Positions 49,988 through 61,947 of a stretch of 64,000 nucleotides of DNA are shown one piece after another. Every line of letters starts with the position of its first letter. Within the stretch, counting starts at the first letter, position 1. Origin of the DNA: Gammaproteobacteria bacterium (GTDB lineage: Bacteria > Pseudomonadota > Gammaproteobacteria > JAJPIJ01); the NCBI GenBank assembly GCA_021324815.1, contig JAJPIJ010000051.1, positions 2,188-66,187 on the forward strand, in the 5' to 3' direction. The position numbers were made by a program, and so were the translations under genes. Below the pieces are notes generated by a model. It was given only the letters and a program-made list of their open reading frames with translations. It did not search any database and was not told where the DNA came from.

Positions 49988-50563
49988 CTACTTTGGCGGC
50001 GACGATTTCGATGCTTGCGGCGCGACCATGCAAAACCCCTGGGGTTCGACCCCCAGAGCTGCATTGAACTTGCTTGACAGGTTCTGGAATGCAATTAACG
50101 CCGTCAGCTCGATGACGGCATCGTCATCGAAGAACTTGCGCAGGCGCGCGAGATGCCCAGCGGTTGAGGACCTGTCCGCACGGGTCATTGCCTCCGCGTA
50201 GGCCAGTGCCGCCTTCTCGCGTTCGCTGAAGTGCGAACTGGACTCGAAATCCGCCAGCGCCTGCAGCTTTTCCACATTGCCGCCACGCCTGAGTATCAGT
50301 GCGGAGTTGATGTCCACGCAGAATGAACACCAGTTGATTTGAGACACCCTCACCGCGATCAGTGAGCGGAGCAGCGGCTCAATGGGCGAGGAACGGCGGT
50401 CAAGGGCACCATATAAAAGCGCCAGGGCAACGAATACCTTCGGGCTCCGGCCCCACAACCGAGCGGACTCGAGCACCGTGCCATAGCGCCGTTTTTGATT
50501 CCAGAGAAATAGACGCACATACCATGGGAAGCGGTGCGTCGGCGGGGTCGGAATCATAGCCAT
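49988..50563 (-). CDS. carboxymuconolactone decarboxylase (AhpD-like) family protein
   Basis: 191 aa. CMD-family length and a WCSFC Cys pair. Confidence 0.6.
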   Translation of the reverse strand: MAMIPTPPTHRFPWYVRLFLWNQKRRYGTVLESARLWGRSPKVFVALALLYGALDRRSSPIEPLLRSLIAVRVSQINWCSFCVDINSALILRRGGNVEKLQALADFESSSHFSEREKAALAYAEAMTRADRSSTAGHLARLRKFFDDDAVIELTALIAFQNLSSKFNAALGVEPQGFCMVAPQASKSSPPK

Positions 50564-50760: not shown

Positions 50761-52938
50761 CTAAATCCACAAGCCGGCCGCCGCCGCGGGCGGGGAAGTC
50801 AGCCAGGTTCGCTCGAACTCTTCGCTCGTCACCGGTTTCCCGAAAAGATATCCCTGAGCCTCATTACATTTTCTGAGTCGAAGAAAAACGACTTGAGCCT
50901 CGGTCTCGACACCTTCGGCGATGACGCGCATGCCAAGCGCATGTCCTATCCGCAATATCGTGTCGCAGATTACCTCCGCGTTATGGTCGTGTCCAATACC
51001 GTCTACAAATGACTTGTCGATCTTGATCGCATCAACCATGAAACGTTGCAAGTAGTTCAGCGACGAATAGCCGGTGCCGAAATCATCTATGGACACATGC
51101 ACGCCGAGTTTGCGCAGTTCGGCAAGTACTTGCGTGGAATGTTCGACGTCACGCATTGTTGTCGTTTCGGTAATCTCCAATTCGAGTCGAACGGTCGGTA
51201 TGCCGGACTCACCCGCACCGCGGACGGTCGTTGTTTCGGTTACTTCCAATTCAAGTCGATCTGCCGGCATGGCAGAGCCATGCACGACCCGTTTGATCCG
51301 CCGTACCAGGTCTGGGTCGGAAAATTCCTGTCCCGATACGTTGATTGCGAGACGTGGCGACCAACCATAACGCGTGTGCCACCTTTGGATATGCTCACCG
51401 GCCGCCCGCAGGACGAAATCGCCAATCTGTCCCATCAATCCGGTGGATTCCGCAAGCGGAATGAATTCGGCTGGATTCACCAAACCCCGGGTCGGATGCT
51501 GCCAGCGTAGCAGGACTTCGGCGCCGGCCAGCACCGCCCCATCATGCGGCGGCAAGAGCTTGACCTTGGGCTGAAAGACCACGAAAAACTCGCGGCGCAA
51601 AATCGCCTGTTCAAGATCATGGGTCAACTGCTGGCGCGCGCGCATGGCCAATGCGAACTGTGGCGAATAGAACTGATATTTGCAGGTGGTTGCCTCGTAG
51701 GTCTGTACTAATGCCAGTTCCGCCTGCGACAGCAGATCCTCGCCCACAAATACGTTTCCATCCGATTGCGCGATGCCCACTCGCACGGGTAGTGACACCT
51801 CGACATCATCTGCCACTTTGATGGGATGAGAAACGGCATTCAGCAATTTCTCCGCGAGCGCCGCCGTGACATGCGGATCGCCCATTCCGCATCGAACTAT
51901 GACGAATCGATCGGCGCCGACATGCGCCAGAAAGTCGTCGGGGGATGCGGCATATTGCAGACATCGCGCGAGTTCGTGAAGCAAACGATCCGCCGCGGCA
52001 TGACCATAGGTCGCGTTCAGCGCGCGAAAGCGAAGCACGTTGAAAAGCAGCACGGTCACTCCATGCCCCATGCCGCATCTACGCTTCAGGAACTCCAGCA
52101 ACGCCGCCCGGTTCGGCAAACCGGTAATGAGGTCATGGTGCGTCAGGAAAAACGCCTGCTCCACCGCCATCTCTTTATCACGGCGCCTGCTGTCGGCCAC
52201 CCTGTTGAGCATGGTGTTGTGTGCGTGGATCAAGTCGCCCATCTCGTCGCCGCGCCTCATCGACAATGTGAACGATGCGGCATCGTCTGGTGTTGCCGCG
52301 GCCTTGAGTGCGCTTTCGCGCAGTCGCAGCAGCGGGCGCAGCAGCCATCGATCCAGCACCAGCATTGTCCCGACGGTCACCACCAGCACGATGATTGCGA
52401 TCAAACCGGCGATGCGCAATAAGTAGGCATGCAATCGCTGCGGCAGGTCGCCAACATCAACGCGGGCGGCCACAGTCACATCCGGAATCAGATCGCTGCG
52501 CCAGACCGCAGTCAGAGTTCGCCCCCCTGTCTCCGTAGAAACGAGTTGTCGCTTCAGTGTCGCGCCCGGCACCAGGTCGGTGGCAGGAACCTCGCCGGCG
52601 CTGGCCAGTACCGCGCCAGACGGGCCGCGGATCGCCACCCCGCGCAACCCCTCCTGACCGACGATTGCATCAAGATCCGGAAGGATCCTGCGTCTCCGAG
52701 CGTCGGCGAGCACAAATTCAACCAGGCTCTGGGTCCTCTCGGCCAGTCGCATCAGCTCCCCGCGCTCAAAATACCTGGCTGATGGCACTATAATGACACT
52801 TTCAACGCCAAGGATAAGTCCAAACACGGCAAGCGTGATCTTCCAGCAAAGGCGGCAACTCCATAGCGGGGAAAGTCCAGCCACCGCCGGGACCTTATGC
52901 TGGATGCTCTGCTGTTCCATTTTAAATGTGTCATCCAT
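50761..52938 (-). CDS. membrane sensor diguanylate cyclase/phosphodiesterase (TM-periplasmic-TM-HAMP-GGDEF-EAL)
   Basis: GGDEF region (LPNRAALLEF..., RCGMGD variant), EAL region (EVLLRWQHP, DDFGTGYSSLNYL). Two N-terminal TM helices. Confidence 0.85.
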   Translation of the reverse strand: MDDTFKMEQQSIQHKVPAVAGLSPLWSCRLCWKITLAVFGLILGVESVIIVPSARYFERGELMRLAERTQSLVEFVLADARRRRILPDLDAIVGQEGLRGVAIRGPSGAVLASAGEVPATDLVPGATLKRQLVSTETGGRTLTAVWRSDLIPDVTVAARVDVGDLPQRLHAYLLRIAGLIAIIVLVVTVGTMLVLDRWLLRPLLRLRESALKAAATPDDAASFTLSMRRGDEMGDLIHAHNTMLNRVADSRRRDKEMAVEQAFFLTHHDLITGLPNRAALLEFLKRRCGMGHGVTVLLFNVLRFRALNATYGHAAADRLLHELARCLQYAASPDDFLAHVGADRFVIVRCGMGDPHVTAALAEKLLNAVSHPIKVADDVEVSLPVRVGIAQSDGNVFVGEDLLSQAELALVQTYEATTCKYQFYSPQFALAMRARQQLTHDLEQAILRREFFVVFQPKVKLLPPHDGAVLAGAEVLLRWQHPTRGLVNPAEFIPLAESTGLMGQIGDFVLRAAGEHIQRWHTRYGWSPRLAINVSGQEFSDPDLVRRIKRVVHGSAMPADRLELEVTETTTVRGAGESGIPTVRLELEITETTTMRDVEHSTQVLAELRKLGVHVSIDDFGTGYSSLNYLQRFMVDAIKIDKSFVDGIGHDHNAEVICDTILRIGHALGMRVIAEGVETEAQVVFLRLRKCNEAQGYLFGKPVTSEEFERTWLTSPPAAAAGLWI
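51163..51258. repeat. in-frame 69-bp tandem duplication inside the EAL domain coding region
   Basis: Cores gtttcggtaatctccaattcgagtcga (51163-51189) and gtttcggttacttccaattcaagtcga (51232-51258). Encodes RLELEVTETTTVR / RLELEITETTTMR. Confidence 0.75.
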
Positions 52939-53037: not shown

Positions 53038-53619
53038 TCAGTCATCGTCGTGTCCCCGCCATGCGCGATCGGCAAACATTTCATCGACTGGGGTGTGAAA
53101 CAGGTGATTGGAATAGTTGCTGAGCGTCTTCACGGCAATGGCCAGGATGATGGCGAGGATCTGGTGTTCTGAATAGCCCGCCTTCAGAAAGGCCGCGACG
53201 TCTTCCTGGCGCGGCCGCCCCTGCGTCCATAACATAATCCGCGTGAAGTCAAAGAGTGCCGAAAGCCGCGGGTCACTAATTTCCTTGCCGTCGCGGATGG
53301 CATCGGTCACTGCCATCGGGACCTGCGAATGTTTGTCGGCAAGCGTGCTGTGCGCCGCCATGCAATAATGGCACCGATTATCGCGGCTAATCGTCAGAAA
53401 CACGACCTCCTGCTCGGCCGGCGTAAATCCGGACTCTGACCGAAATCTCGCATAGCCGAGCAGGTAGGTCTCCAACAGGCCCGGCAGGTTCACCATGCCG
53501 GCATACATGTTGGGGATGAAACCGACCTGGGCTTTCGCCCGGTCAAGGACCTCCCGGGCGCGCGGATCGGCCTGCGCAAGCGTGATCAGGGGAAGGGTGA
53601 GTTTGTACTCTGCGGTCAT
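53038..53619 (-). CDS. carboxymuconolactone decarboxylase / AhpD-like peroxidase-related protein
   Basis: CHYCMAAH (CxxC...H) motif typical of the AhpD core. About 193 aa. Confidence 0.7.
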   Translation of the reverse strand: MTAEYKLTLPLITLAQADPRAREVLDRAKAQVGFIPNMYAGMVNLPGLLETYLLGYARFRSESGFTPAEQEVVFLTISRDNRCHYCMAAHSTLADKHSQVPMAVTDAIRDGKEISDPRLSALFDFTRIMLWTQGRPRQEDVAAFLKAGYSEHQILAIILAIAVKTLSNYSNHLFHTPVDEMFADRAWRGHDDD

Positions 53620-53974: not shown

Positions 53975-56131
53975 TTACCCCCTTTGCCAGCGGTGCAGAT
54001 GTTCCAGCCAGCACAGCAGCCGCACCGGTGCGTGCTGGCGCTTCCACGTCCCGGCGGCGTACTTGTTGGCCTCTGCCAGGGTGGGATAGATGTGGATGGT
54101 TTTAAGGATCTTGTTGAGTCCGATGCCGTGGCGCATCGCCAGCACGTATTCGGCGATGAGATCACCGGCATGCTCGCCAACAATGGTGACGCCCAGGATT
54201 CGATCGGAGCCCGGCGCGGTCAGCACCTTGACATAGCCGCGGTCGCTGCCATCGGTGATGGCCCGATCGAGATCGTCCAATCCGTAGCGCGTCACCTCGA
54301 CTACCACGCCCTGCGCTTTCGCCTCCGCCTCGTTCAACCCCACCCGCGCGACTTCCGGATCGGTGAAGGTCGCCCAGGGAATCACGGAGTAATCAGCCTT
54401 GAAGCGCTTGTAGCGACCGAACAGGGCGTTGACCGCGGCATACCATGCTTGGTGCGCGGCGGTATGGGTAAACTGGTAGGGACCGGCGACGTCGCCGCAT
54501 GCAAGAATATTCGGATAGCGGGTTTGGAGATATTCATTGGTACGCACAGTACCGGTGGGAGTCGTCTCAATGTTGAGTTCTTCCAGACCCAGCCCTTCCG
54601 TATTGGCGCGACGCCCCACAGCGACCAGCACGTCATCGAAAACCACCCGCCGCATATCACCGAGGTGATCAAGATAGACGGCCTTCTCGCCATCCTCGAT
54701 AGCGAAGTGCATCGCCTTGTGCTCCAGAAGGACTTGCACGCCGTCGGCCTCCAAGCTTTGCTGAACCAGTTGCGAGGCCTCGTCGTCCTCCCGGATCAGC
54801 AAACGGGGCAGCATTTCGACCAAAGTGACGTTGCTGCCCAGCCGGGCGAAGGCCTGTGTCAGTTCGCAGCCGATGGGGCCGCCGCCCAGGACCACGAGGC
54901 GCGCCGGTCTGGTTTCAATCTCCCACAGGCTATCGGAGGTCAGGTAACCAACCTCGCGCAGCCCCGGTATGGACGGAACCAGCGGGCGGCTGCCGGTGGC
55001 GATCACGATGTTACACGCGGTCAGCCGCTGTGTATCGCTCCCGTGCCGGATTTCAACCTCCCAGGGCGAAACCAGCCGCGCCTCGCCCGCTCGGCAATCC
55101 ACGCCCAGTTCGGTGTAGCGCGCCACCGAATCGTGCGGCGCCACCTTTTCGATCACGCGGTGGACGCGTCGCATGACGCTGGCGAAATCAACCGGTGGAT
55201 CGATCCCGCCCAAACCATAGTGATCAGCGCATCTGGCCAGATGCAGGATGCGCGCGCTCTTGATCAAGGCCTTGGATGGCACACAACCCGTATTCAGACA
55301 GTCGCCGCCCATGCGATGTTTCTCCACAAGCGTAACACCGGCCCTGATTGCCGCGGCGATATACGCCGTTACCAGACCTGCGCTGCCGGCGCCGATCACG
55401 ATCAGATTGCGGTCGAAGCGCCGCGGTCGTCGCGATTCCCAAGGCCGGTACACGTGCCAGATCTGCGCGCGCGACGCCAGAACGCGCGCCAGCCAGGGGA
55501 AGCATGCCAACAACGCGAAAGCGCCCAAGAGCTGCGGTGATAACAGGTCGGCGACGCTTTCGATCCGCGCCAGCTGGGTGCCGGCATTCACGTAGACGAT
55601 TGTGCCGGCCAGCATCCCGACTTGGCTCACCCAGTAGAAGGTCCAGGCCGGCATGAGTGTCAGTCCCATCAACAGATTGACCAGGAAGAACGGGAACGCC
55701 GGCACCAACCGGAGGGTGAAAAGATATAAGGCGCCATCGCGTTCCAGACCGGCGTTGATATGGCGCAAGCTTGCGCCGAAGCGGCTTTGGACAATGTCGC
55801 GCAAGAGGAAGCGCGAGACAAGAAACGCCAGCGTCGCGCCCAGAGAGGACGCAAACGACACGATTACAGTGCCGGACAGCATACCGAACAGGGCACCCGC
55901 CATTATCGTCAGGAGAGTGGCGCCGGGTAACGATACGGCAGTCACTGCGACGTAGCACAGGAAGAAACCGACAACCATGGACAATGGATAGCGATGATAG
56001 AGCTGTACGAAATGTTGCTGGCGCGCCTTCAGATTGTCCAGGGTTAGGTAGGACTGCATATCGAAGACAAAAAATGCGGCAATCGCCGCTGCGACCACTG
56101 TAAACAGGATCAGCTTGTTGCGGCCGCGCAT
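53975..56131 (-). CDS. bifunctional DedA(TVP38/TMEM64)-family membrane domain / class I FAD-dependent pyridine nucleotide-disulfide oxidoreductase
   Basis: N-terminal polytopic DedA-like domain. C-terminal FAD motif GAGSAGL, redox-active GGDCLNTGCVPSK, NADH-binding and dimerisation regions. Confidence 0.75.
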   Translation of the reverse strand: MRGRNKLILFTVVAAAIAAFFVFDMQSYLTLDNLKARQQHFVQLYHRYPLSMVVGFFLCYVAVTAVSLPGATLLTIMAGALFGMLSGTVIVSFASSLGATLAFLVSRFLLRDIVQSRFGASLRHINAGLERDGALYLFTLRLVPAFPFFLVNLLMGLTLMPAWTFYWVSQVGMLAGTIVYVNAGTQLARIESVADLLSPQLLGAFALLACFPWLARVLASRAQIWHVYRPWESRRPRRFDRNLIVIGAGSAGLVTAYIAAAIRAGVTLVEKHRMGGDCLNTGCVPSKALIKSARILHLARCADHYGLGGIDPPVDFASVMRRVHRVIEKVAPHDSVARYTELGVDCRAGEARLVSPWEVEIRHGSDTQRLTACNIVIATGSRPLVPSIPGLREVGYLTSDSLWEIETRPARLVVLGGGPIGCELTQAFARLGSNVTLVEMLPRLLIREDDEASQLVQQSLEADGVQVLLEHKAMHFAIEDGEKAVYLDHLGDMRRVVFDDVLVAVGRRANTEGLGLEELNIETTPTGTVRTNEYLQTRYPNILACGDVAGPYQFTHTAAHQAWYAAVNALFGRYKRFKADYSVIPWATFTDPEVARVGLNEAEAKAQGVVVEVTRYGLDDLDRAITDGSDRGYVKVLTAPGSDRILGVTIVGEHAGDLIAEYVLAMRHGIGLNKILKTIHIYPTLAEANKYAAGTWKRQHAPVRLLCWLEHLHRWQRG

Positions 56132-57075
56132 GTCACTCTTTCCGCCGACCGATTTGCGATTGGTGCCAGTTCGCTGCAGGATGCATGGTGTTTGAAACAA
56201 CTGTAACATCGGTGATGGCGCAGCATGATGCGTTGTTTCAAACTTTCCCCCAGGCTCCCACCCAGGTCAAAAGCTGGATCATCGTCCACCAGCGTGCAGG
56301 CATACACCCGCATGCGACCACCGATCTTCACCACCATCCGGCTGGAGGCGCACATGAAGGCGGCGCGGCTTTCCGCGGTGTGATAGGTGGTCATGCAATG
56401 CTCGGTGATTTCTGGGTTTTCTACCCGGCTGCCGGGCGGATGAAAATCGGGGAACGACACCAGCCTCAGATCTTTCGGCAAACCGTTTCGCTGGAAAAGG
56501 TCTCGAAAACGGCTTTCGACGACGTCAGCGTCTTCATTGGCTGACTGCTGCCGGGCCACTGATACTTTGAAACCCATGGCATGCAACGCGCACAAGCTTT
56601 TCACCGCCAGATCAAAGGCGCCGAAACCCCGGCCACTGTCATGGCGGTTTGCATCGGGATAATCGAGGCTCACACGGAAACTTGTCGGATGGGGGCAATG
56701 CAACAATGGCCGCAACTCATCTAGACGACGCAGCAGCGGCAGCGTGCCATTGGTCAGCACCAGGCAGGGACGGTAGCGCGAGGCACATCTTAAGATTGCC
56801 GGGAAATCCCTCGCCAGAAACGGTTCACCGCCGGTGAATGAAAACTGTTCAACACCGAGTGCCACGGCTTCCACAATGAACGGTTCGACATCAATGAGTT
56901 TCACCAGCTCCAAGCGTCTGTCGCCGGGCTTCGAACCTTCCAGGCAGAAAGGACAAGCCAGGTTGCAAGCCGTGCCGATATGAAACCACAGTTCGCGTAA
57001 GCGGCTGGTATCGATATAGCCCCGCGGCTCACCGCTTCGCGTGAACAACCAGTCATCCCGCGCCATCCTGTTCAT
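56110..57075 (-). CDS. arsS: radical SAM / Cys-rich domain protein (TIGR04167-like; arsenosugar biosynthesis ArsS-like)
   Basis: CNLACPFC radical-SAM cluster motif, C-terminal Cys-rich CYSCFKHHASC. Immediately downstream of the ArsM-like gene. Confidence 0.6.
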   Translation of the reverse strand: MNRMARDDWLFTRSGEPRGYIDTSRLRELWFHIGTACNLACPFCLEGSKPGDRRLELVKLIDVEPFIVEAVALGVEQFSFTGGEPFLARDFPAILRCASRYRPCLVLTNGTLPLLRRLDELRPLLHCPHPTSFRVSLDYPDANRHDSGRGFGAFDLAVKSLCALHAMGFKVSVARQQSANEDADVVESRFRDLFQRNGLPKDLRLVSFPDFHPPGSRVENPEITEHCMTTYHTAESRAAFMCASSRMVVKIGGRMRVYACTLVDDDPAFDLGGSLGESLKQRIMLRHHRCYSCFKHHASCSELAPIANRSAERVTCAAATS

Positions 57076-57084
57076 GTCATTCTC

Positions 57085-58131
57085 CTAACAGCAGCCGTTG
57101 TTCGCGGATGCGCTGGTGGCCTCAGCAAACGGCAGTCCGCCACCACACCCAGCGAATAACCCGTAATGTGTGTCAAAGCTGCCGATGAACTCGAAATGGG
57201 GTGCAAAACGGGTCTCCTTCAACATCCGCCAGGTATTGCCGCACACGGGCAAGACACGCCCCTTTTCCATGACATGATGTTTGTCCAGCACGAAACGATC
57301 CGGGTGATATGGAATAGTGCCACGATAGATCACCGCCTGGCCGTAATCCTCGCAGGCCGGTTCCAAATCAGGCAATTTAAACAATCGGTAGGTTGCCGAG
57401 AAAAAGCGGATGTTACCGAGCCGCTTGGACAGTTGAGGGCTTTCCACCCGGATCGGCCGGCCGCCGACCTGGCGCGGGTCGGGGAAACCCTGGCGTACTG
57501 CCAGCGTTAAAAAGTCGTTCCAATAGAGCGCCCCGCTCAGGCATTCACCGTACAGCACCGGATCCTGTTTGAGCTGCGCCGGGACCCGCCGGTCCGCATA
57601 AATGTCCGCGAAGTAGATCTCACCGCCCGGCTTCAACACATGGTAAGCCTGACGCAGGACTGCGGCCTTGTCCGAGGCAAGATTGATCACGCAGTTGGAT
57701 ACAACGAGATCCACGCTGGCCGCGGGAATGGCTAGTCTGTCAAGGCGTTCGATATCGCCATGCAGAAACTGGACATTGCTCTTCTGATAACCAAAGGCCT
57801 TGCGATGAAACTCGGCGTGCCGGCGGGCAATGGCAAGCTGTTTTTCGGTCATGTCGACACCAATCACCGAACCTTGCGGTCCCACCAGTCGGGACAGGAG
57901 ATAAGCGTCACGACCGGTTCCACAGCCCAGATCCAGGATGGTCAGCCCTTCCAGATGTTCCGGCACAATCAGTCCGCAGCCATAATGCCGTTCGATGACC
58001 TCGGGATGGATCTGCGCCAGGATGGGTTTGACAAACTCCGGTGGCGACGCTTCGGTGCAGCATGCGTCAGTTTTCAGATCTTTCGTGCCCTGCAAGGTTT
58101 CGCCGTAATACTGCTTCACGATATCATTCAT
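57085..58131 (-). CDS. arsM: arsenite S-adenosylmethionine methyltransferase (ArsM/AS3MT-like)
   Basis: N-terminal DACC Cys pair, YGCGLIVPEHLEGLTILDLGCGTGRD SAM-binding motif with conserved Cys, further conserved Cys and C-terminal Cys-rich tail. Confidence 0.7.
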   Translation of the reverse strand: MNDIVKQYYGETLQGTKDLKTDACCTEASPPEFVKPILAQIHPEVIERHYGCGLIVPEHLEGLTILDLGCGTGRDAYLLSRLVGPQGSVIGVDMTEKQLAIARRHAEFHRKAFGYQKSNVQFLHGDIERLDRLAIPAASVDLVVSNCVINLASDKAAVLRQAYHVLKPGGEIYFADIYADRRVPAQLKQDPVLYGECLSGALYWNDFLTLAVRQGFPDPRQVGGRPIRVESPQLSKRLGNIRFFSATYRLFKLPDLEPACEDYGQAVIYRGTIPYHPDRFVLDKHHVMEKGRVLPVCGNTWRMLKETRFAPHFEFIGSFDTHYGLFAGCGGGLPFAEATSASANNGCC

Positions 58132-58150: not shown

Positions 58151-58849
58151 TCATGTACCTGTTTCACCATTACCGTAACCGCGCGCCAGCACATTGGGAG
58201 AAAGGCCTGCCGCAAATGCCAGCGCCAGGATGCGGTTTCGAAAGGATCTCCGCCACCAACCATCGCGTTCCCAGCGACGCGGATCTACTCGCAGCCCGTC
58301 ATCGATCACAACGAACGGTCCTTGTTGACGCAGTTTCCTGACCAGTGCGACCTCTTCAAAAAGCGGTGACACAGAATGCCCACCCGCCATTACATAAGCC
58401 GCCACGGTCATAAACAAACCTTGATCACCATACGGTATGCCAATCCGGCAACGTAAATTGATCAACCTCTCCAGAACCCTTGCCTGCCAGCGGCAAGCCC
58501 CCGCAAAGCGAAAACGAAAGTATCCCCCTGCGGCGCCGCGGCCCATGGCTTGTGTGATCGAACCAAGTGGATCGCCCTGAAGAGTTGCGTCGGCGTGCAG
58601 GAACCAGATGACATCACCAGTCGCTGCGAATGCGCCCTGACGTAGCTGCGCGCCGCGGCAGGGCCGCGACGGCAACCGCCGTGCCCCCCAGCGCTGACAC
58701 AGCGAATGCGTAGCGGCGCCGTCTTCGGCGTCGACGACGACGATTTCGTGCGGTTGCGAAGCCCCGGCACGCAGTTGCGACAATAACCGCCCCAGCGCGG
58801 CATCGTCGCGAAAGCACGGAATCACTACACTGATATCCACGTTACACAT
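58151..58849 (-). CDS. family 2 glycosyltransferase (TIGR04283-like, rSAM-associated)
   Basis: DISVVIPCFRD GT2 N-terminal motif. Confidence 0.6.
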   Translation of the reverse strand: MCNVDISVVIPCFRDDAALGRLLSQLRAGASQPHEIVVVDAEDGAATHSLCQRWGARRLPSRPCRGAQLRQGAFAATGDVIWFLHADATLQGDPLGSITQAMGRGAAGGYFRFRFAGACRWQARVLERLINLRCRIGIPYGDQGLFMTVAAYVMAGGHSVSPLFEEVALVRKLRQQGPFVVIDDGLRVDPRRWERDGWWRRSFRNRILALAFAAGLSPNVLARGYGNGETGT

Positions 58850-58854
58850 GCCCA

Positions 58855-59550
58855 TCACATTGAGGATTGCAACCACCGGTAAAGCTTCTGGCGGGCCGGT
58901 CGCCGATCCCCGGCCAGGGTGTTGGCAAGGCGTTGCAGGTCATCGACCTCGTCGATGTCAAATCCGCCGCCAGGCAAAACTACGAGACTCCCGCAGCGGT
59001 TGCAGGCCTGCGCCAGGGTCTGGCCCAGTTGCCCGGTGCTCCACGGCAAACCGCCGAGATCAGGCCAAGGGCGCCGGGACGCCATGAGGACGACACCGCC
59101 ATCCCTCGCCGGGATCAGCACGGTATCGTAGCTCATCAGGCAGCGACGAACGTCCTCATAATCGGTGCTCGACAGTGACGGCGCATCGCTGCCGATGAAC
59201 ACCAGCGACTGATGGCCACGCGCGCGCAGTTCGCCATCCAGACGATTGAGACGTTGGCCCAGATTGCCGCGCCCCTGAGCATGGACCCGCACACCTGGAA
59301 GTAACGTCGTTGCCCAAGACACATCTCGCCGCCTCGCAGGCGCCACGACGATGGGGCCAGGCCAGGCGGCCAGATCCTCCGTGGCACAGGCAAGCAGTTG
59401 TGTTGCGATTTCGTAGGTGATATTGATGCCCAGTGTTTTCGCCAGACGCTGCTTGCCGACACCGGGCGCCGGACGTTTGCATACCAAAACCAATGTGGGC
59501 AGGCGCGGATCTCCGGCGGACGCGCTGTCTGTGAGGATGGTCGGGGCCAT
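58855..59550 (-). CDS. DUF2064 (TIGR04282-like, rSAM-associated transferase 1) protein
   Basis: LVLVCKRPAPGVGKQRLAKTLG motif. Start at MAPTIL with GGAGG SD. The long Arg-rich N-terminal extension in the ORF track is discounted. Confidence 0.6.
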   Translation of the reverse strand: MAPTILTDSASAGDPRLPTLVLVCKRPAPGVGKQRLAKTLGINITYEIATQLLACATEDLAAWPGPIVVAPARRRDVSWATTLLPGVRVHAQGRGNLGQRLNRLDGELRARGHQSLVFIGSDAPSLSSTDYEDVRRCLMSYDTVLIPARDGGVVLMASRRPWPDLGGLPWSTGQLGQTLAQACNRCGSLVVLPGGGFDIDEVDDLQRLANTLAGDRRPARQKLYRWLQSSM

Positions 59551-59570: not shown

Positions 59571-60704
59571 TCATGGCATGAGAAAGTGCATGGCTCGGTA
59601 AGCTGCGATCCCGAGCAGCGCCGCCACCGGCAGGGTTACCACCCAGGCCAGCAGGATGTCCCGCAACACACGACGATTGATCCGACGACGTCGGAGCCCG
59701 GCGCCGACAATACCGCCTGAAGACACATGCGTCGTGGACACCGGCAAACCATAGAGCGCCGCCGACGTTACCAGCACGGCCGTGACGAGATTGGCGGCGA
59801 ATCCCTCGCGGTGGTCCATGCGGGTGACCTTTTCCGCCAGCACATGCGTGACACGACGACCGCCGACGACACTGCCCACCAACATGCCCAGGGCAACAAG
59901 TGCGAACAGCGCCGGCATCGGCAGCGCGGTCGGACCGGCCAGCACTGCCGCGGCGGCGATCAGGGCCACCATTTTGGGCGCGTCGTTCATGCCACGAGCG
60001 AGACTGGTGGCGCCGCTGGTCAGCCAGTGCAGATGGTCGAACGTCAGACGCACCGCCTGTGGTCTTTCCCGGGCGCACTGCTCCCGGTCACCCGTCACAA
60101 TCGACAGGGTCGTCGGCACGAAGGTACCGGCGGCGGCCAGGGTGCCGATACGATCCACGTTTATCTCAACAGGCTGCGCCTCCAGGCACAGGCAATCCCC
60201 CACCGGCACGCGCTCCTCTTGCTCCTGAAAGGATCCGAGCAACAACACAGTCAATCCGAAAGAGACGGCCGGACTCACCAGCAGCGGGAGAAAAACCTTC
60301 ATGCCCAATGAACTCCATTGGATGGAGGCGGGACCATAAACGAGATAGCCAACGCCGACGACAGCACCGACCAGGGCATGGGTGGTGGAGACCGGCAGCC
60401 CGGTACGGGAGGCCAGGAAAACCCATCCTGCCGCCCCAATCAGCATGGCCAGCACCGCGGCGAGAGTGGGTGTAATGACAGGATCCAGCAACCCCTTGCC
60501 GAAGGTCGTGAGCATGGCACTGCCCCACAGCCCACCCAGCAAGGCGCCTAGACCAGTCCACAGAGTGCCCCAAATGATGGCCCGCCGATAGGTGGTCACA
60601 CCGCTGCCGACCAGCGTGGCAATCCCCTTCGACACGTCGTTGGAGCCATTGGCATAGGCCAGTGCCAAACCGGCCGTGACGGCAAACAGAATCTCCACAG
60701 TCAC
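59571..60704 (-). CDS. PiT-family inorganic phosphate (arsenate-permeable) transporter
   Basis: Duplicated PiT signature (YANGSNDVSKGIATLVGSG; ARGMNDAPK). 377 aa. Confidence 0.85.
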   Translation of the reverse strand: MTVEILFAVTAGLALAYANGSNDVSKGIATLVGSGVTTYRRAIIWGTLWTGLGALLGGLWGSAMLTTFGKGLLDPVITPTLAAVLAMLIGAAGWVFLASRTGLPVSTTHALVGAVVGVGYLVYGPASIQWSSLGMKVFLPLLVSPAVSFGLTVLLLGSFQEQEERVPVGDCLCLEAQPVEINVDRIGTLAAAGTFVPTTLSIVTGDREQCARERPQAVRLTFDHLHWLTSGATSLARGMNDAPKMVALIAAAAVLAGPTALPMPALFALVALGMLVGSVVGGRRVTHVLAEKVTRMDHREGFAANLVTAVLVTSAALYGLPVSTTHVSSGGIVGAGLRRRRINRRVLRDILLAWVVTLPVAALLGIAAYRAMHFLMP

Positions 60705-61073: not shown

Positions 61074-61703
61074 ATGCCAAGGACACTTCTACAAAAGGCA
61101 GCACATATGAATGGACCTGTGGTCGTCAGCCCTGACGCGATTGCCAGAGAACAAAAATACCTTTATCGATACGCCATCACGCGCTTGCGTGACCCTGATC
61201 TTGCGCAGGACGTCGTGCAGGACACCATCCTCGCCGCGATGGAGGCGGCAGAGCGCTTCCAGGGAAAGGCGTCTCTGCGGACCTGGCTCATCGCCATTCT
61301 GCGGAACAAGATCCTCGATGCCATGAAGGCGCATGCTCGATTGGTGTCTCTGGAGTCGGATCCCTCCACAGAGGATGCGCTTGATCACGATGTCGACAAG
61401 CAATTCAACCTGGACGGTCGCTGGTCGACCACCTATCGACCAACATCCTGGGCGAATCCGGAGGCTGCCTTTGAGAATACGCAGTTTTGGACGGTCTTCG
61501 AACGCTGTCTTGAGCATGTGCCGCCTCGGATTGCCGAGGTGTTCGTTCTACGAGAGGTGTTGGGTGAGACCATCGCCGACATCTGTAAGATTCTCGATCT
61601 TTCCGCGTCCAATTGTTCAGTCATGTTATTCCGCGCCCGCATGCGCCTGAAGGATTGTCTGGACGTGAACTGGTTTCGCGGGGAGACACGCAAGGATGCT
61701 TGA
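61074..61703 (+). CDS. ECF sigma factor (RpoE/ChrR-partner type)
   Basis: Region 2 DLAQDVVQDTILAAME, region 4 LPPRIAEVFVLREVLGETIADICKILDLSASNCSVMLFRAR. Confidence 0.8.
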   Translation: MPRTLLQKAAHMNGPVVVSPDAIAREQKYLYRYAITRLRDPDLAQDVVQDTILAAMEAAERFQGKASLRTWLIAILRNKILDAMKAHARLVSLESDPSTEDALDHDVDKQFNLDGRWSTTYRPTSWANPEAAFENTQFWTVFERCLEHVPPRIAEVFVLREVLGETIADICKILDLSASNCSVMLFRARMRLKDCLDVNWFRGETRKDA

Positions 61704-61752
61704 ACAGCATCCCGTCATGGCAAGATCAATCAATCGAACAAGGAGCTAACCC

Positions 61753-61947
61753 GTGGTCAGCTGGATGGATAACTGCAAAAAGATCAGCAGAATGATGTCT
61801 GATGCCATGGATCGCGATCTGACCCCCTGGGAGCGCCTGCGGATCCGAGTGCACCTCCTGATGTGTACAGGCTGCGCCCAATTTGCGCGCCAGCTCCAGA
61901 TACTCCGGGCGGTCTCACGCGCTTTCGTTGATCACACATTCTCGTAA
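61753..61947 (+). CDS. minimal ZAS-type anti-sigma factor (64 aa)
   Basis: HLLMCTGC = HxxxCxxC zinc-anti-sigma motif. Directly downstream of the ECF sigma gene. Lacks a C-terminal sensor domain. Confidence 0.5.
   Translation: MVSWMDNCKKISRMMSDAMDRDLTPWERLRIRVHLLMCTGCAQFARQLQILRAVSRAFVDHTFS

Follow-up and report, generated by a model that had tools for sequence, protein, structure and literature searches.

A DedA–flavoreductase fusion recurring in ArsS/TIGR04282/TIGR04283 gene clusters of proteobacteria

DedA membrane proteins of COG0398 correlate with aerobic lifestyles and have scramblases among their eukaryotic relatives, and their own function is open (PMC10127716). Their commonest fusion partner is the domain pair PF07992 and PF02852, and the function of the resulting proteins is unknown (Todor et al. 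2023, PMC10127716). A fusion of this kind, 718 amino acids (aa) long, is encoded on the minus strand at 53975..56131 of the DNA analysed here, a stretch of 64,000 nucleotides (nt) from a gammaproteobacterial assembly (GCA_021324815.1, contig JAJPIJ010000051.1, positions 2,188 to 66,187), which is referred to as the window. In a preliminary description of this DNA the function of such fusions was called unknown, and this remains true. The architecture had already been noted in PMC10127716 and named by RefSeq, and a literature search returned no functional study of it and no paper linking it to arsenosugar genes.

The name given by RefSeq/PGAP is 'bifunctional TVP38/TMEM64 family protein/FAD-dependent oxidoreductase', and the window fusion has the same architecture and length, with no structural difference. 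It is collinear with the plasmid-borne coding sequences bearing that name (55-61% identity, 96-97% coverage), is 60-82% identical to copies in genomes and metagenomes, and shares with the named family the invariant motifs CLNTGC and H-x-Y-P-T-x-x-E. By its sequence, the window copy is thus an ordinary member of a family whose architecture was already known. What is added by this analysis is the genomic context, in which the fusion, a split form of it and unfused relatives of its reductase are found inside a module of ArsS, TIGR04282 and TIGR04283 genes.

The closest described pathway is that of arsenosugar synthesis in Synechocystis, whose first steps are catalysed by ArsM and ArsS (Xue et al. 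2019 and Cheng et al. 2021, cited in PMC8552651 and PMC12159101), the only two established (PMC8552651, citing others); the radical S-adenosylmethionine (SAM) step adenosylates arsenic (PMC12159101). The window operon resembles this pathway in having an ArsM homologue beside a radical SAM protein, together with members of the TIGR04282 and TIGR04283 'arsenosugar biosynthesis' families, and differs from it in that its radical SAM protein comes from a sister family and not from TIGR04167. In Synechocystis sp. PCC 6803, arsM is slr0303 (PMC4010505) and slr0305 encodes a Tvp38/DedA homologue of the YdjX/YdjZ type (PMC3836016); the adjacency of these two genes is read from their locus tags only. 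Should slr0304 be arsS, a COG0398 DedA gene would come next after the arsenosugar genes validated by experiment. In the literature search, no paper was found giving a DedA-reductase a role in the Synechocystis pathway, or describing the linkage of fused, split or unfused forms with ArsS/TIGR04282/TIGR04283 clusters, the recurrence of PiT, ArsM, AhpD-like and extracytoplasmic function (ECF) sigma genes in that gene set, or a large ArsS-like sister family paired with ArsM.

The reading that we favour is that the fusion is a cytoplasmic flavoreductase held at the membrane by its DedA domain and dedicated to a conserved organoarsenical ('arsenosugar-type') module. On the evidence of sequence and gene order, this reading may be given a probability of about one half.

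Recurrence of the fusion in ArsS/TIGR04282/TIGR04283 clusters

A scan of contigs representing one genome per species returned more than 540 relatives of the fusion, of which the best 80 (60-67% identity, from beta- and gammaproteobacteria) were analysed; with three others obtained from protein look-ups, these make up 83 related loci. Neighbours were counted by tblastn where 2.5 kb or more of flanking sequence was available, and codon-position GC scoring was used for gene calls in high-GC loci. True ArsS is encoded directly upstream of the fusion in 39 of 66 loci, and it lies on the same strand as the fusion in 41 of the 43 loci that contain it when the flank filter is not applied. Downstream of the fusion, TIGR04283 is present in 41/63 loci, TIGR04282 in 39/63, DUF547 in 28/63 and a TIGR03169 oxidoreductase in 24/63. 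Representatives of these neighbours score above the curated cut-offs of their families (TIGR04167, 449 vs 300; TIGR04283, 287 vs 182; TIGR04282, 202 vs 134; TIGR03169, 381 vs 310). In addition, an unannotated protein of 320-340 aa, labelled c7, is encoded between ArsS and the fusion in 19/66 loci (e.g., L003 8986-10008 and L020 269-1234); it gives no PDB match, and its only matches, to metallophosphoesterases, are sub-threshold (motif GDFHWFD).

Where both flanks could be read, at least one module gene or ArsM-like gene accompanies the fusion in 46 of 52 loci. A lack of co-occurrence with ars genes had been named in the preliminary description as a result that would speak against its arsenic proposal; the figures for true ArsS and for module genes show the opposite. 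In the nearest relative of the window locus, with a fusion 82% identical, the same radical SAM gene precedes the fusion with the same 22-nt overlap, and an Isoalcanivorax locus contains ArsM, the radical SAM gene and the fusion. Two further loci carry ArsM plus the radical SAM gene, or the latter alone, with no fusion nearby. When metagenomes were scanned with the one radical SAM protein, 8 loci were obtained.

The two halves of the protein are also met apart. In a gammaproteobacterial metagenome-assembled genome (MAG; L102 3423-7915), genes for a DUF2064 protein, a DedA protein (241 aa), an FAD reductase (495 aa), a family-2 glycosyltransferase (GT2) and an ArsS-like radical SAM protein follow one another with 4-nt overlaps throughout, the separate DedA protein being 37% and the reductase 44% identical to the respective halves of the window fusion. 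This split form provides evidence of the Rosetta-stone type that the two halves cooperate and are part of the module. Two metagenome loci (L090 and L092) encode a TIGR04282-like protein, an unfused reductase and a TIGR04283-like protein, followed by an ArsS-like radical SAM protein, and in S. meliloti a TVP38 gene and merA1 are listed together (PMC12445080). The fusion, the split pair or the reductase alone thus recur in the ArsS/TIGR04282/TIGR04283 clusters of many proteobacterial species.

Annotated replicons extend this picture. According to its RefSeq labels, plasmid pJNE5-X3_NDM-1 of Acinetobacter portensis carries arsS, the fusion, DUF547, TIGR04283, TIGR04282, a methyltransferase and PiT, and near this cluster there are mtnP, encoding methylthioadenosine (MTA) phosphorylase, and genes for a sterol-desaturase-family protein, CMD, a sigma factor, thioredoxin, CcdA and a peroxiredoxin-like protein. 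Taking into account the identities of these products to their window homologues (methyltransferase 58%, CMD 50%, PiT 38%, sigma factor 37%, TIGR04282 31% and TIGR04283 30%), the gene set of the window recurs on the plasmid in another order, with true ArsS in place of the ArsS-like radical SAM protein. In Burkholderia thailandensis (L104 4450-6864) the fusion lies directly after a DUF2282-DUF692-DNA-binding-DoxX operon, and nearby are an orthologue of the window CMD (57% identity), TIGR04282, TIGR04283, MTA phosphorylase and a TIGR03169-like gene. We take the DUF2282-DUF692-DoxX operon to be one of the bufferin type, producing a ribosomally synthesised and post-translationally modified peptide and linked to metal stress. 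Pairs of sigma and anti-sigma genes are found near the fusion in 10 loci (gene cluster c8) and also in L083, L103, L104, L107 and L108, recurring in Alcanivorax, Pseudooceanicola, Burkholderia, Acinetobacter and Sphingopyxis. Around the fusions of annotated plasmids (L104-L108) mtnP, a cytidine diphosphate (CDP)-alcohol phosphatidyltransferase gene, a sterol-desaturase-family gene and an ABC transporter recur, a set of neighbours that hints at the processing of ribosides and at chemistry of phospholipid head groups. The window contains none of these genes.

In Pseudooceanicola, Pseudoalteromonas and Catenovulum (L103, L105 and L106), the fusion occurs without ArsS, near DUF547, an ABC transporter, a CDP-alcohol phosphatidyltransferase and a sterol-desaturase-family gene. 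Such contexts would suit a general membrane enzyme of redox or lipid homeostasis in aerobes, with a DedA domain that serves as lipid scramblase or transporter and a flavoprotein whose substrate is a lipid-soluble oxidant, a disulfide or a quinone-like compound, arsenic genes being one neighbourhood among several. The thioredoxin, CcdA, peroxiredoxin-like and 'peroxidase-related' genes near the fusion are in line with this alternative, as are the aerobic distribution of COG0398 proteins and the scramblase activity of their eukaryotic relatives (PMC10127716), and the Escherichia coli gene order ydjX-ydjY-ydjZ-ynjA (AhpD-like)-ynjE (rhodanese). However, ArsS, TIGR04282 or TIGR04283 flank the fusion in about 60-65% of the informative loci, the proportion with any module gene being the 46/52 given above, and the split pair of L102 is set between two glycosyltransferase (GT)-like genes with overlapping stop and start codons. 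We consider a general role of this kind possible, but rather unlikely.

Integrity and architecture of the fusion protein

The minus-strand frame that encodes the fusion is open over 53975..56209, with its stop codon at 53975-53977, and the ATG at 56131, which is preceded by GGAAAGAG, gives the 718-aa product. Gene callers chose this start in L084, L086 and L087, three independent assemblies that carry the same sequence, and alignments of homologues of 711-725 aa begin at residues 1-6 of the fusion. Within this uninterrupted frame, Pfam recognises VTT, Pyr_redox_2 and Pyr_redox_dim, in agreement with the preliminary proposal of a single protein joining a DedA domain to a class I FAD disulfide oxidoreductase.

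The same proposal had pointed to a frameshift or stop between the two domains as the observation that would undo it, and none is found in the window. That the fusion is an artefact of assembly or frameshift, joining two separate genes, could be argued from truly split versions in other taxa (L102) and from one MAG copy (GCA_037025745.1; L085 2606-4779) in which an otherwise identical gene is called as parts of 331 and 399 aa. The second of these parts is only about 88% identical, and the split is probably an assembly error, a strain chimera or a local pseudogene. On the other side, at least three independent assemblies contain the same 718-aa product, the fusion has more than 8000 matches among database proteins, the top 120 of them all full length (711-737 aa) with the same Pfam set, and a full-length copy is present in 93 plasmid records. 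When a library reduced to 50% identity was searched, nearly the whole fusion was covered by many of the 150 best representatives, down to about 35% identity, and the AlphaFold2 (AF2) model shows a continuous helix through the domain junction. An artefact is effectively excluded.

The membrane half comprises a DedA/VTT domain (residues 1-235) and a basic linker helix, encoded at 55427..56131 on the minus strand and delimited from Pfam, BLASTP, hydropathy and the AF2 model. The VTT_dom match (PF09335) covers residues 72-185 with 72.3 bits against a cut-off of 33.9, all Pfam positions being renumbered to the 718-aa protein. In BLASTP, this half is 32% identical to E. coli YdjX (E = 4e-22) and 31% identical to YdjZ (E = 2e-15), and it gives no match to E. 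coli DedA, by which it is placed in the COG0398/TVP38 subfamily, nearer to YdjX and YdjZ than to COG0586 members. Taken alone, the domain matches no NCBIfam family, and no solved homologue was found by sequence search. YdjX and YdjZ and the eukaryotic proteins TMEM41B, VMP1 and Tvp38, which it resembles to the extent of that identity to YdjX and YdjZ, are stand-alone membrane proteins, whereas the window domain is covalently joined to a flavoenzyme.

In E. coli K-12 (1833401-1840774, L098), the genes run ydjX-ydjY (4Fe-4S ferredoxin-type)-ydjZ-ynjA (AhpD-like)-ynjBCD-ynjE (rhodanese). There too a COG0398 DedA gene, ydjZ, is followed by an AhpD-like gene, as at the window locus; the window AhpD-like protein shows no BLASTP similarity to YnjA.

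From hydropathy, residues 7 to 215 contain about six segments embedded in the membrane. The protein starts with a basic N-terminus (MRGRNK), and its linker (215-245) contains eight Lys/Arg residues. The AF2 model has a mean pLDDT of 79; in blocks of 10 residues, the values are 55-80 for the DedA half and, apart from a few low blocks, mostly about 80-95 for the FAD half. In this model the last membrane helix (199-234) leads directly to the first strand of the FAD domain (residue 241), and the tether between the two halves is therefore modelled as short and probably rigid. The hydropathy, the positive-inside analysis and this helix fit an N-in/C-in topology that leaves the flavoprotein in the cytoplasm, so that the topology check suggested in the preliminary description, now run, places the reductase half on the cytoplasmic side.

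The flavoprotein half (residues 240-718; 53978..55414, minus strand) matches Pyr_redox_2 (PF07992) over residues 242-562 with 209 bits and Pyr_redox_dim (PF02852) over residues 584-692 with 105 bits. From its sequence and fold it is a class I FAD-dependent pyridine nucleotide-disulfide oxidoreductase. The CxxxxC redox site proposed earlier stands, since the motif GGDCLNTGCVPSK at residues 275-287 (55271..55309, minus strand) contains C278 and C283, a C-x4-C pair invariant in all 26 sequences of an alignment of homologues with a mean column identity of 72%. The best PDB sequence matches of this half are mercuric reductase (MerA; 5x1y, 265 bits) and the dihydrolipoyl dehydrogenase (Lpd) of Thermus (2eq6, 260 bits); in Foldseek it gives template modelling (TM) scores of 0.86-0.90 to Lpd and MerA, the top matches being Lpd structures.

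Two motifs bear on the chemistry. Near the C-terminus, alignments to MerA, to Lpd and among the 26 homologues define H680-I-Y682-P-T-L-A-E687 (54071..54094, minus strand), in which Tyr682, invariant in the 26 sequences, stands where Lpd and glutathione reductase (GR) have their catalytic His and aligns with a Tyr of MerA. The fusion lacks the C-terminal H-P-T-x-x-E motif, whose His-Glu dyad serves as acid/base for disulfide substrates, and the unfused and split relatives have the same Y-P-T..E motif as the fusion, in the form L-P-Y-P-T-R-x-E. The second motif is an invariant V-E-M (Glu439) that closes the second Rossmann beta-strand, where Glu is the pattern of NADH-dependent enzymes (Lpd) and not of NADPH-dependent ones (GR and MerA). 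A preference for NADH over NADPH is inferred from it.

The flavoprotein half falls below every NCBIfam equivalog cut-off: TIGR02053 (MerA) gives 385.6 bits vs 454.45, TIGR01350 (Lpd) 390 vs 408.8 and NF004991 512 vs 620. Both enzyme identities were rejected, that of MerA on its sub-cut-off score, the DedA domain standing at the N-terminus in place of an NmerA (HMA) domain, and the lack of a C-terminal Cys-Cys pair, and that of Lpd on its sub-cut-off score and the replacement of the catalytic His by Tyr. The sole C-terminal Cys, C707, is not conserved among the 26 homologues.

The fusion shares with Lpd (E3) the fold (TM about 0.86-0.89), 33-38% identity and the NADH-type Glu. A plain dihydrolipoyl dehydrogenase, or a glutathione-type disulfide reductase, is what some source names ('dihydrolipoyl dehydrogenase'), the TIGR01350 score and the top Foldseek matches would suggest; such an enzyme is very improbable here given the equivalog scores, the Tyr in 26/26 aligned sequences, the membrane tether and the fact that in the loci examined the gene never stands beside E1 or E2 genes. 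Neither a lipoyl carrier nor AhpC is encoded nearby.

The likeness to MerA consists of the best PDB sequence match, the class I fold, the CxxxxC site and the Tyr in place of the catalytic His. On this basis, the protein could be a detoxification reductase for a metal or metalloid (Hg, Se, Te, Au or Cu), with the DedA domain as an uptake and hand-over route comparable to that from MerT to NmerA/MerA. The position of the B. thailandensis gene after the presumed bufferin-type operon, the ECF sigma/anti-sigma pairs that recur nearby, and the TIGR03169 ('N-terminal to SelD') and rhodanese neighbours may be counted for it, and a DedA protein has reportedly been linked to selenite uptake in Ralstonia metallidurans. 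Nevertheless, besides the sub-cut-off TIGR02053 score and the missing NmerA domain and conserved Cys pair, the second Tyr of MerA is His in the fusion and the nucleotide motif is of the NADH and not the NADPH type, and the DedA domain itself sets the fusion apart from MerA. Detoxification of this kind appears improbable.

The operon of the window and its surroundings

In the window, the fusion is the last of six packed minus-strand genes (PiT, TIGR04282-like, TIGR04283-like, ArsM, radical SAM, fusion) with intergenic distances of 20, -1, 19, 9 and -22 nt. The first gene (59571..60704) encodes an inorganic phosphate transporter of the PiT/PHO4 family (PF01384, 251 bits). It is followed by genes for a TIGR04282-like DUF2064 (CofC-like) protein (58855..59550), which reaches 104.6 bits against the TIGR04282 cut-off of 134 and 61.5 bits with Pfam DUF2064, and for a TIGR04283-like family-2 glycosyltransferase (58151..58855; 177.7 bits vs 182).

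The fourth gene (57085..58131) encodes a homologue, 348 aa long, of ArsM-type As(III) SAM methyltransferases. Its product matches the ArsM structure of Chlamydomonas (5evj) with 365 bits over the full length and CmArsM (4fr0) with 305 bits, and all four conserved Cys residues of ArsM (C44, C72, C174 and C224 of CmArsM) are aligned. With NF008823 it gives 165 bits, under the cut-off of 263. The label arsM is justified at the level of homology.

The fifth gene (56110..57075) encodes an ArsS-like radical SAM protein of 321 aa and overlaps the start of the fusion by 22 nt. An arsM/arsS pair had been described just 5' of the fusion; the ArsM homologue and the overlapping radical SAM gene bear this out, but the radical SAM protein is not ArsS proper, scoring 35.5 bits with TIGR04167 against the cut-off of 300, and its C-terminal part gives no Pfam match to DUF3641. 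When its family was compared with true ArsS by hhalign, a probability of 97.5% was obtained (E = 7.7e-12, 272 columns, 22% identity), the C-terminal Cys motifs being included in the alignment. From these profiles the protein is homologous to ArsS over the full length, though remotely, and its family is a sister of TIGR04167. This family, met in the window and in L088, L089, L100 and L102, has more than 7000 database matches of about 303-321 aa, occurs in Alcanivorax, Litorivivens, Parahaliea and others, carries an invariant C-terminal motif HHRC[YF]SCF..G[AS]SCSE, and is often paired with an ArsM homologue. It is a candidate second family of enzymes forming C-As bonds.

The next gene downstream of the fusion (53038..53619, minus strand) encodes an AhpD/CMD-like CxxC-H protein with the motif CHYCMAAH, whose family matches are marginal (PF02627 CMD, 24.2 bits vs 23; TIGR00778, 28.8 vs 27.8). 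It had been placed immediately downstream; it is indeed a CMD-family protein encoded by the next gene, although 355 nt away and not abutting. In this gap and elsewhere, a scan for promoters and terminators gave nothing above shuffled background. Upstream of the operon and divergent from it, the plus strand (61074..61947) encodes an ECF sigma factor (61074-61703) and a small zf-HC2-type anti-sigma open reading frame (61753-61947) carrying HLLMCTGC, both being candidate regulators. No homologues of MtnP, DUF547, CDP-alcohol phosphatidyltransferase or TIGR03169 proteins were found in the window.

Just downstream, two other minus-strand genes were observed, one for a second CMD/YciW-related protein (49988-50563; NF053654, 134 bits, under the cut-off) and one for a HAMP-GGDEF-EAL protein (50761-52938), whose EAL region is matched by Pfam in two stretches and contains a short internal repeat, LELEVTETTT...LELEITETTT. 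The rest of the window consists of ordinary chromosomal genes (DnaK, RND pumps, a P-type ATPase and a Ser/Thr kinase). The G+C content falls from 62-70% at 8001-42000 to 56-62% at 42001-64000, with the operon in the lower-GC part, and the region beyond about 42 kb could be an island or a composite.

A possible role in organoarsenical synthesis

That the fusion is a functional component of the organoarsenical module is likely, considering the recurrence described above; a specific role in arsenical or thiol redox chemistry is proposed only tentatively. In such a role, a class I flavoprotein of the homodimer type would be held at the cytoplasmic face of the inner membrane by its COG0398/TVP38-type DedA domain. 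Electrons would pass from NADH to FAD, and from this to the C278-C283 disulfide, which would be reduced to a dithiol. Since Tyr682 replaces the usual His base, as in MerA, the substrate is expected to be small and soft-centred, and the dithiol would act on an As, As-S or As=O species, or on a small CxxC partner, and not on a bulky disulfide.

ArsS uses trivalent dimethylated arsenic, DMAs(III), which is quickly oxidised in air. Marapakala et al. are said to have reported in 2015 that the catalytic cycle of ArsM passes through disulfides that need re-reduction. Under aerobic conditions, ArsM and the radical SAM protein would both need reduction of this kind, and the most likely job of the flavoprotein would be to keep methylated arsenic trivalent, or to keep the cysteine proteins of the pathway (ArsM and the AhpD-like CxxC protein) reduced. 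In Mycobacterium tuberculosis, Lpd, DlaT, AhpD and AhpC form a relay. By analogy with its Lpd-AhpD part, electrons might be relayed through the AhpD-like CxxC protein encoded near the window fusion, with the difference that an AhpD-like gene is absent from most loci related to it.

The DedA half, for its part, would bring in or remove a membrane-soluble or anionic intermediate, such as an arsenical, or would flip a lipid-linked product such as an arsenosugar lipid. As a speculative chain, MTA phosphorylase, the GT-like enzymes and the CDP-alcohol phosphatidyltransferase could convert an adenosylated arsenical to a riboside and this to an arsenosugar phospholipid.

Several observations weigh against a reductase dedicated to organoarsenicals. 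Six of the 52 well-flanked loci have no module gene at all, an AhpD-like gene lies near the fusion in only 1 of the 80 related loci, and the ArsS-free contexts indicate a role that may extend beyond arsenic. TIGR04282 and TIGR04283 owe their own 'arsenosugar' names to annotation by context, and both the NADH preference and the substrate class of the fusion are read from motifs. Moreover, no homologues of E. coli-type ArsR, ArsB or ArsC were found within the 64-kb window. The suggestion that the reductase might serve the reduction of arsenate, As(V), which had been made for this locus, finds nothing that points to it specifically.

A stronger form of the dedicated-reductase reading can also be formulated, in which the DedA-flavoreductase, fused or split (as in L102 and S. 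meliloti), would be an obligatory and overlooked component of an arsenosugar/arsenolipid pathway widespread among bacteria. It would reduce pentavalent methyl- or dimethylarsinoyl compounds to the trivalent state at the membrane, while its DedA half would carry the arsenical across, or would flip an arsenosugar lipid in whose synthesis the TIGR04282, TIGR04283, MtnP and CDP-alcohol phosphatidyltransferase genes take part. We know of no bacterial gene for a reductase of the pentavalent methylated forms MAs(V) and DMAs(V). This stronger form is unlikely; if true, it would make COG0398 DedA proteins accessible to biochemistry for the first time, along with a second, ArsS-like family of C-As-bond-forming radical SAM enzymes.

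In sum, the genomic context makes it possible to test two questions: how organoarsenical synthesis proceeds in its later steps, and what COG0398 DedA proteins do. Should the linkage be functional, the fusion would be a concrete candidate for redox and transport in the synthesis of organoarsenicals or arsenolipids, the sister family of ArsS paired with ArsM would be flagged as a candidate new C-As-bond-forming enzyme, and an entry point to the biology of COG0398 DedA proteins would be gained, since the soluble flavoprotein domain can be assayed.

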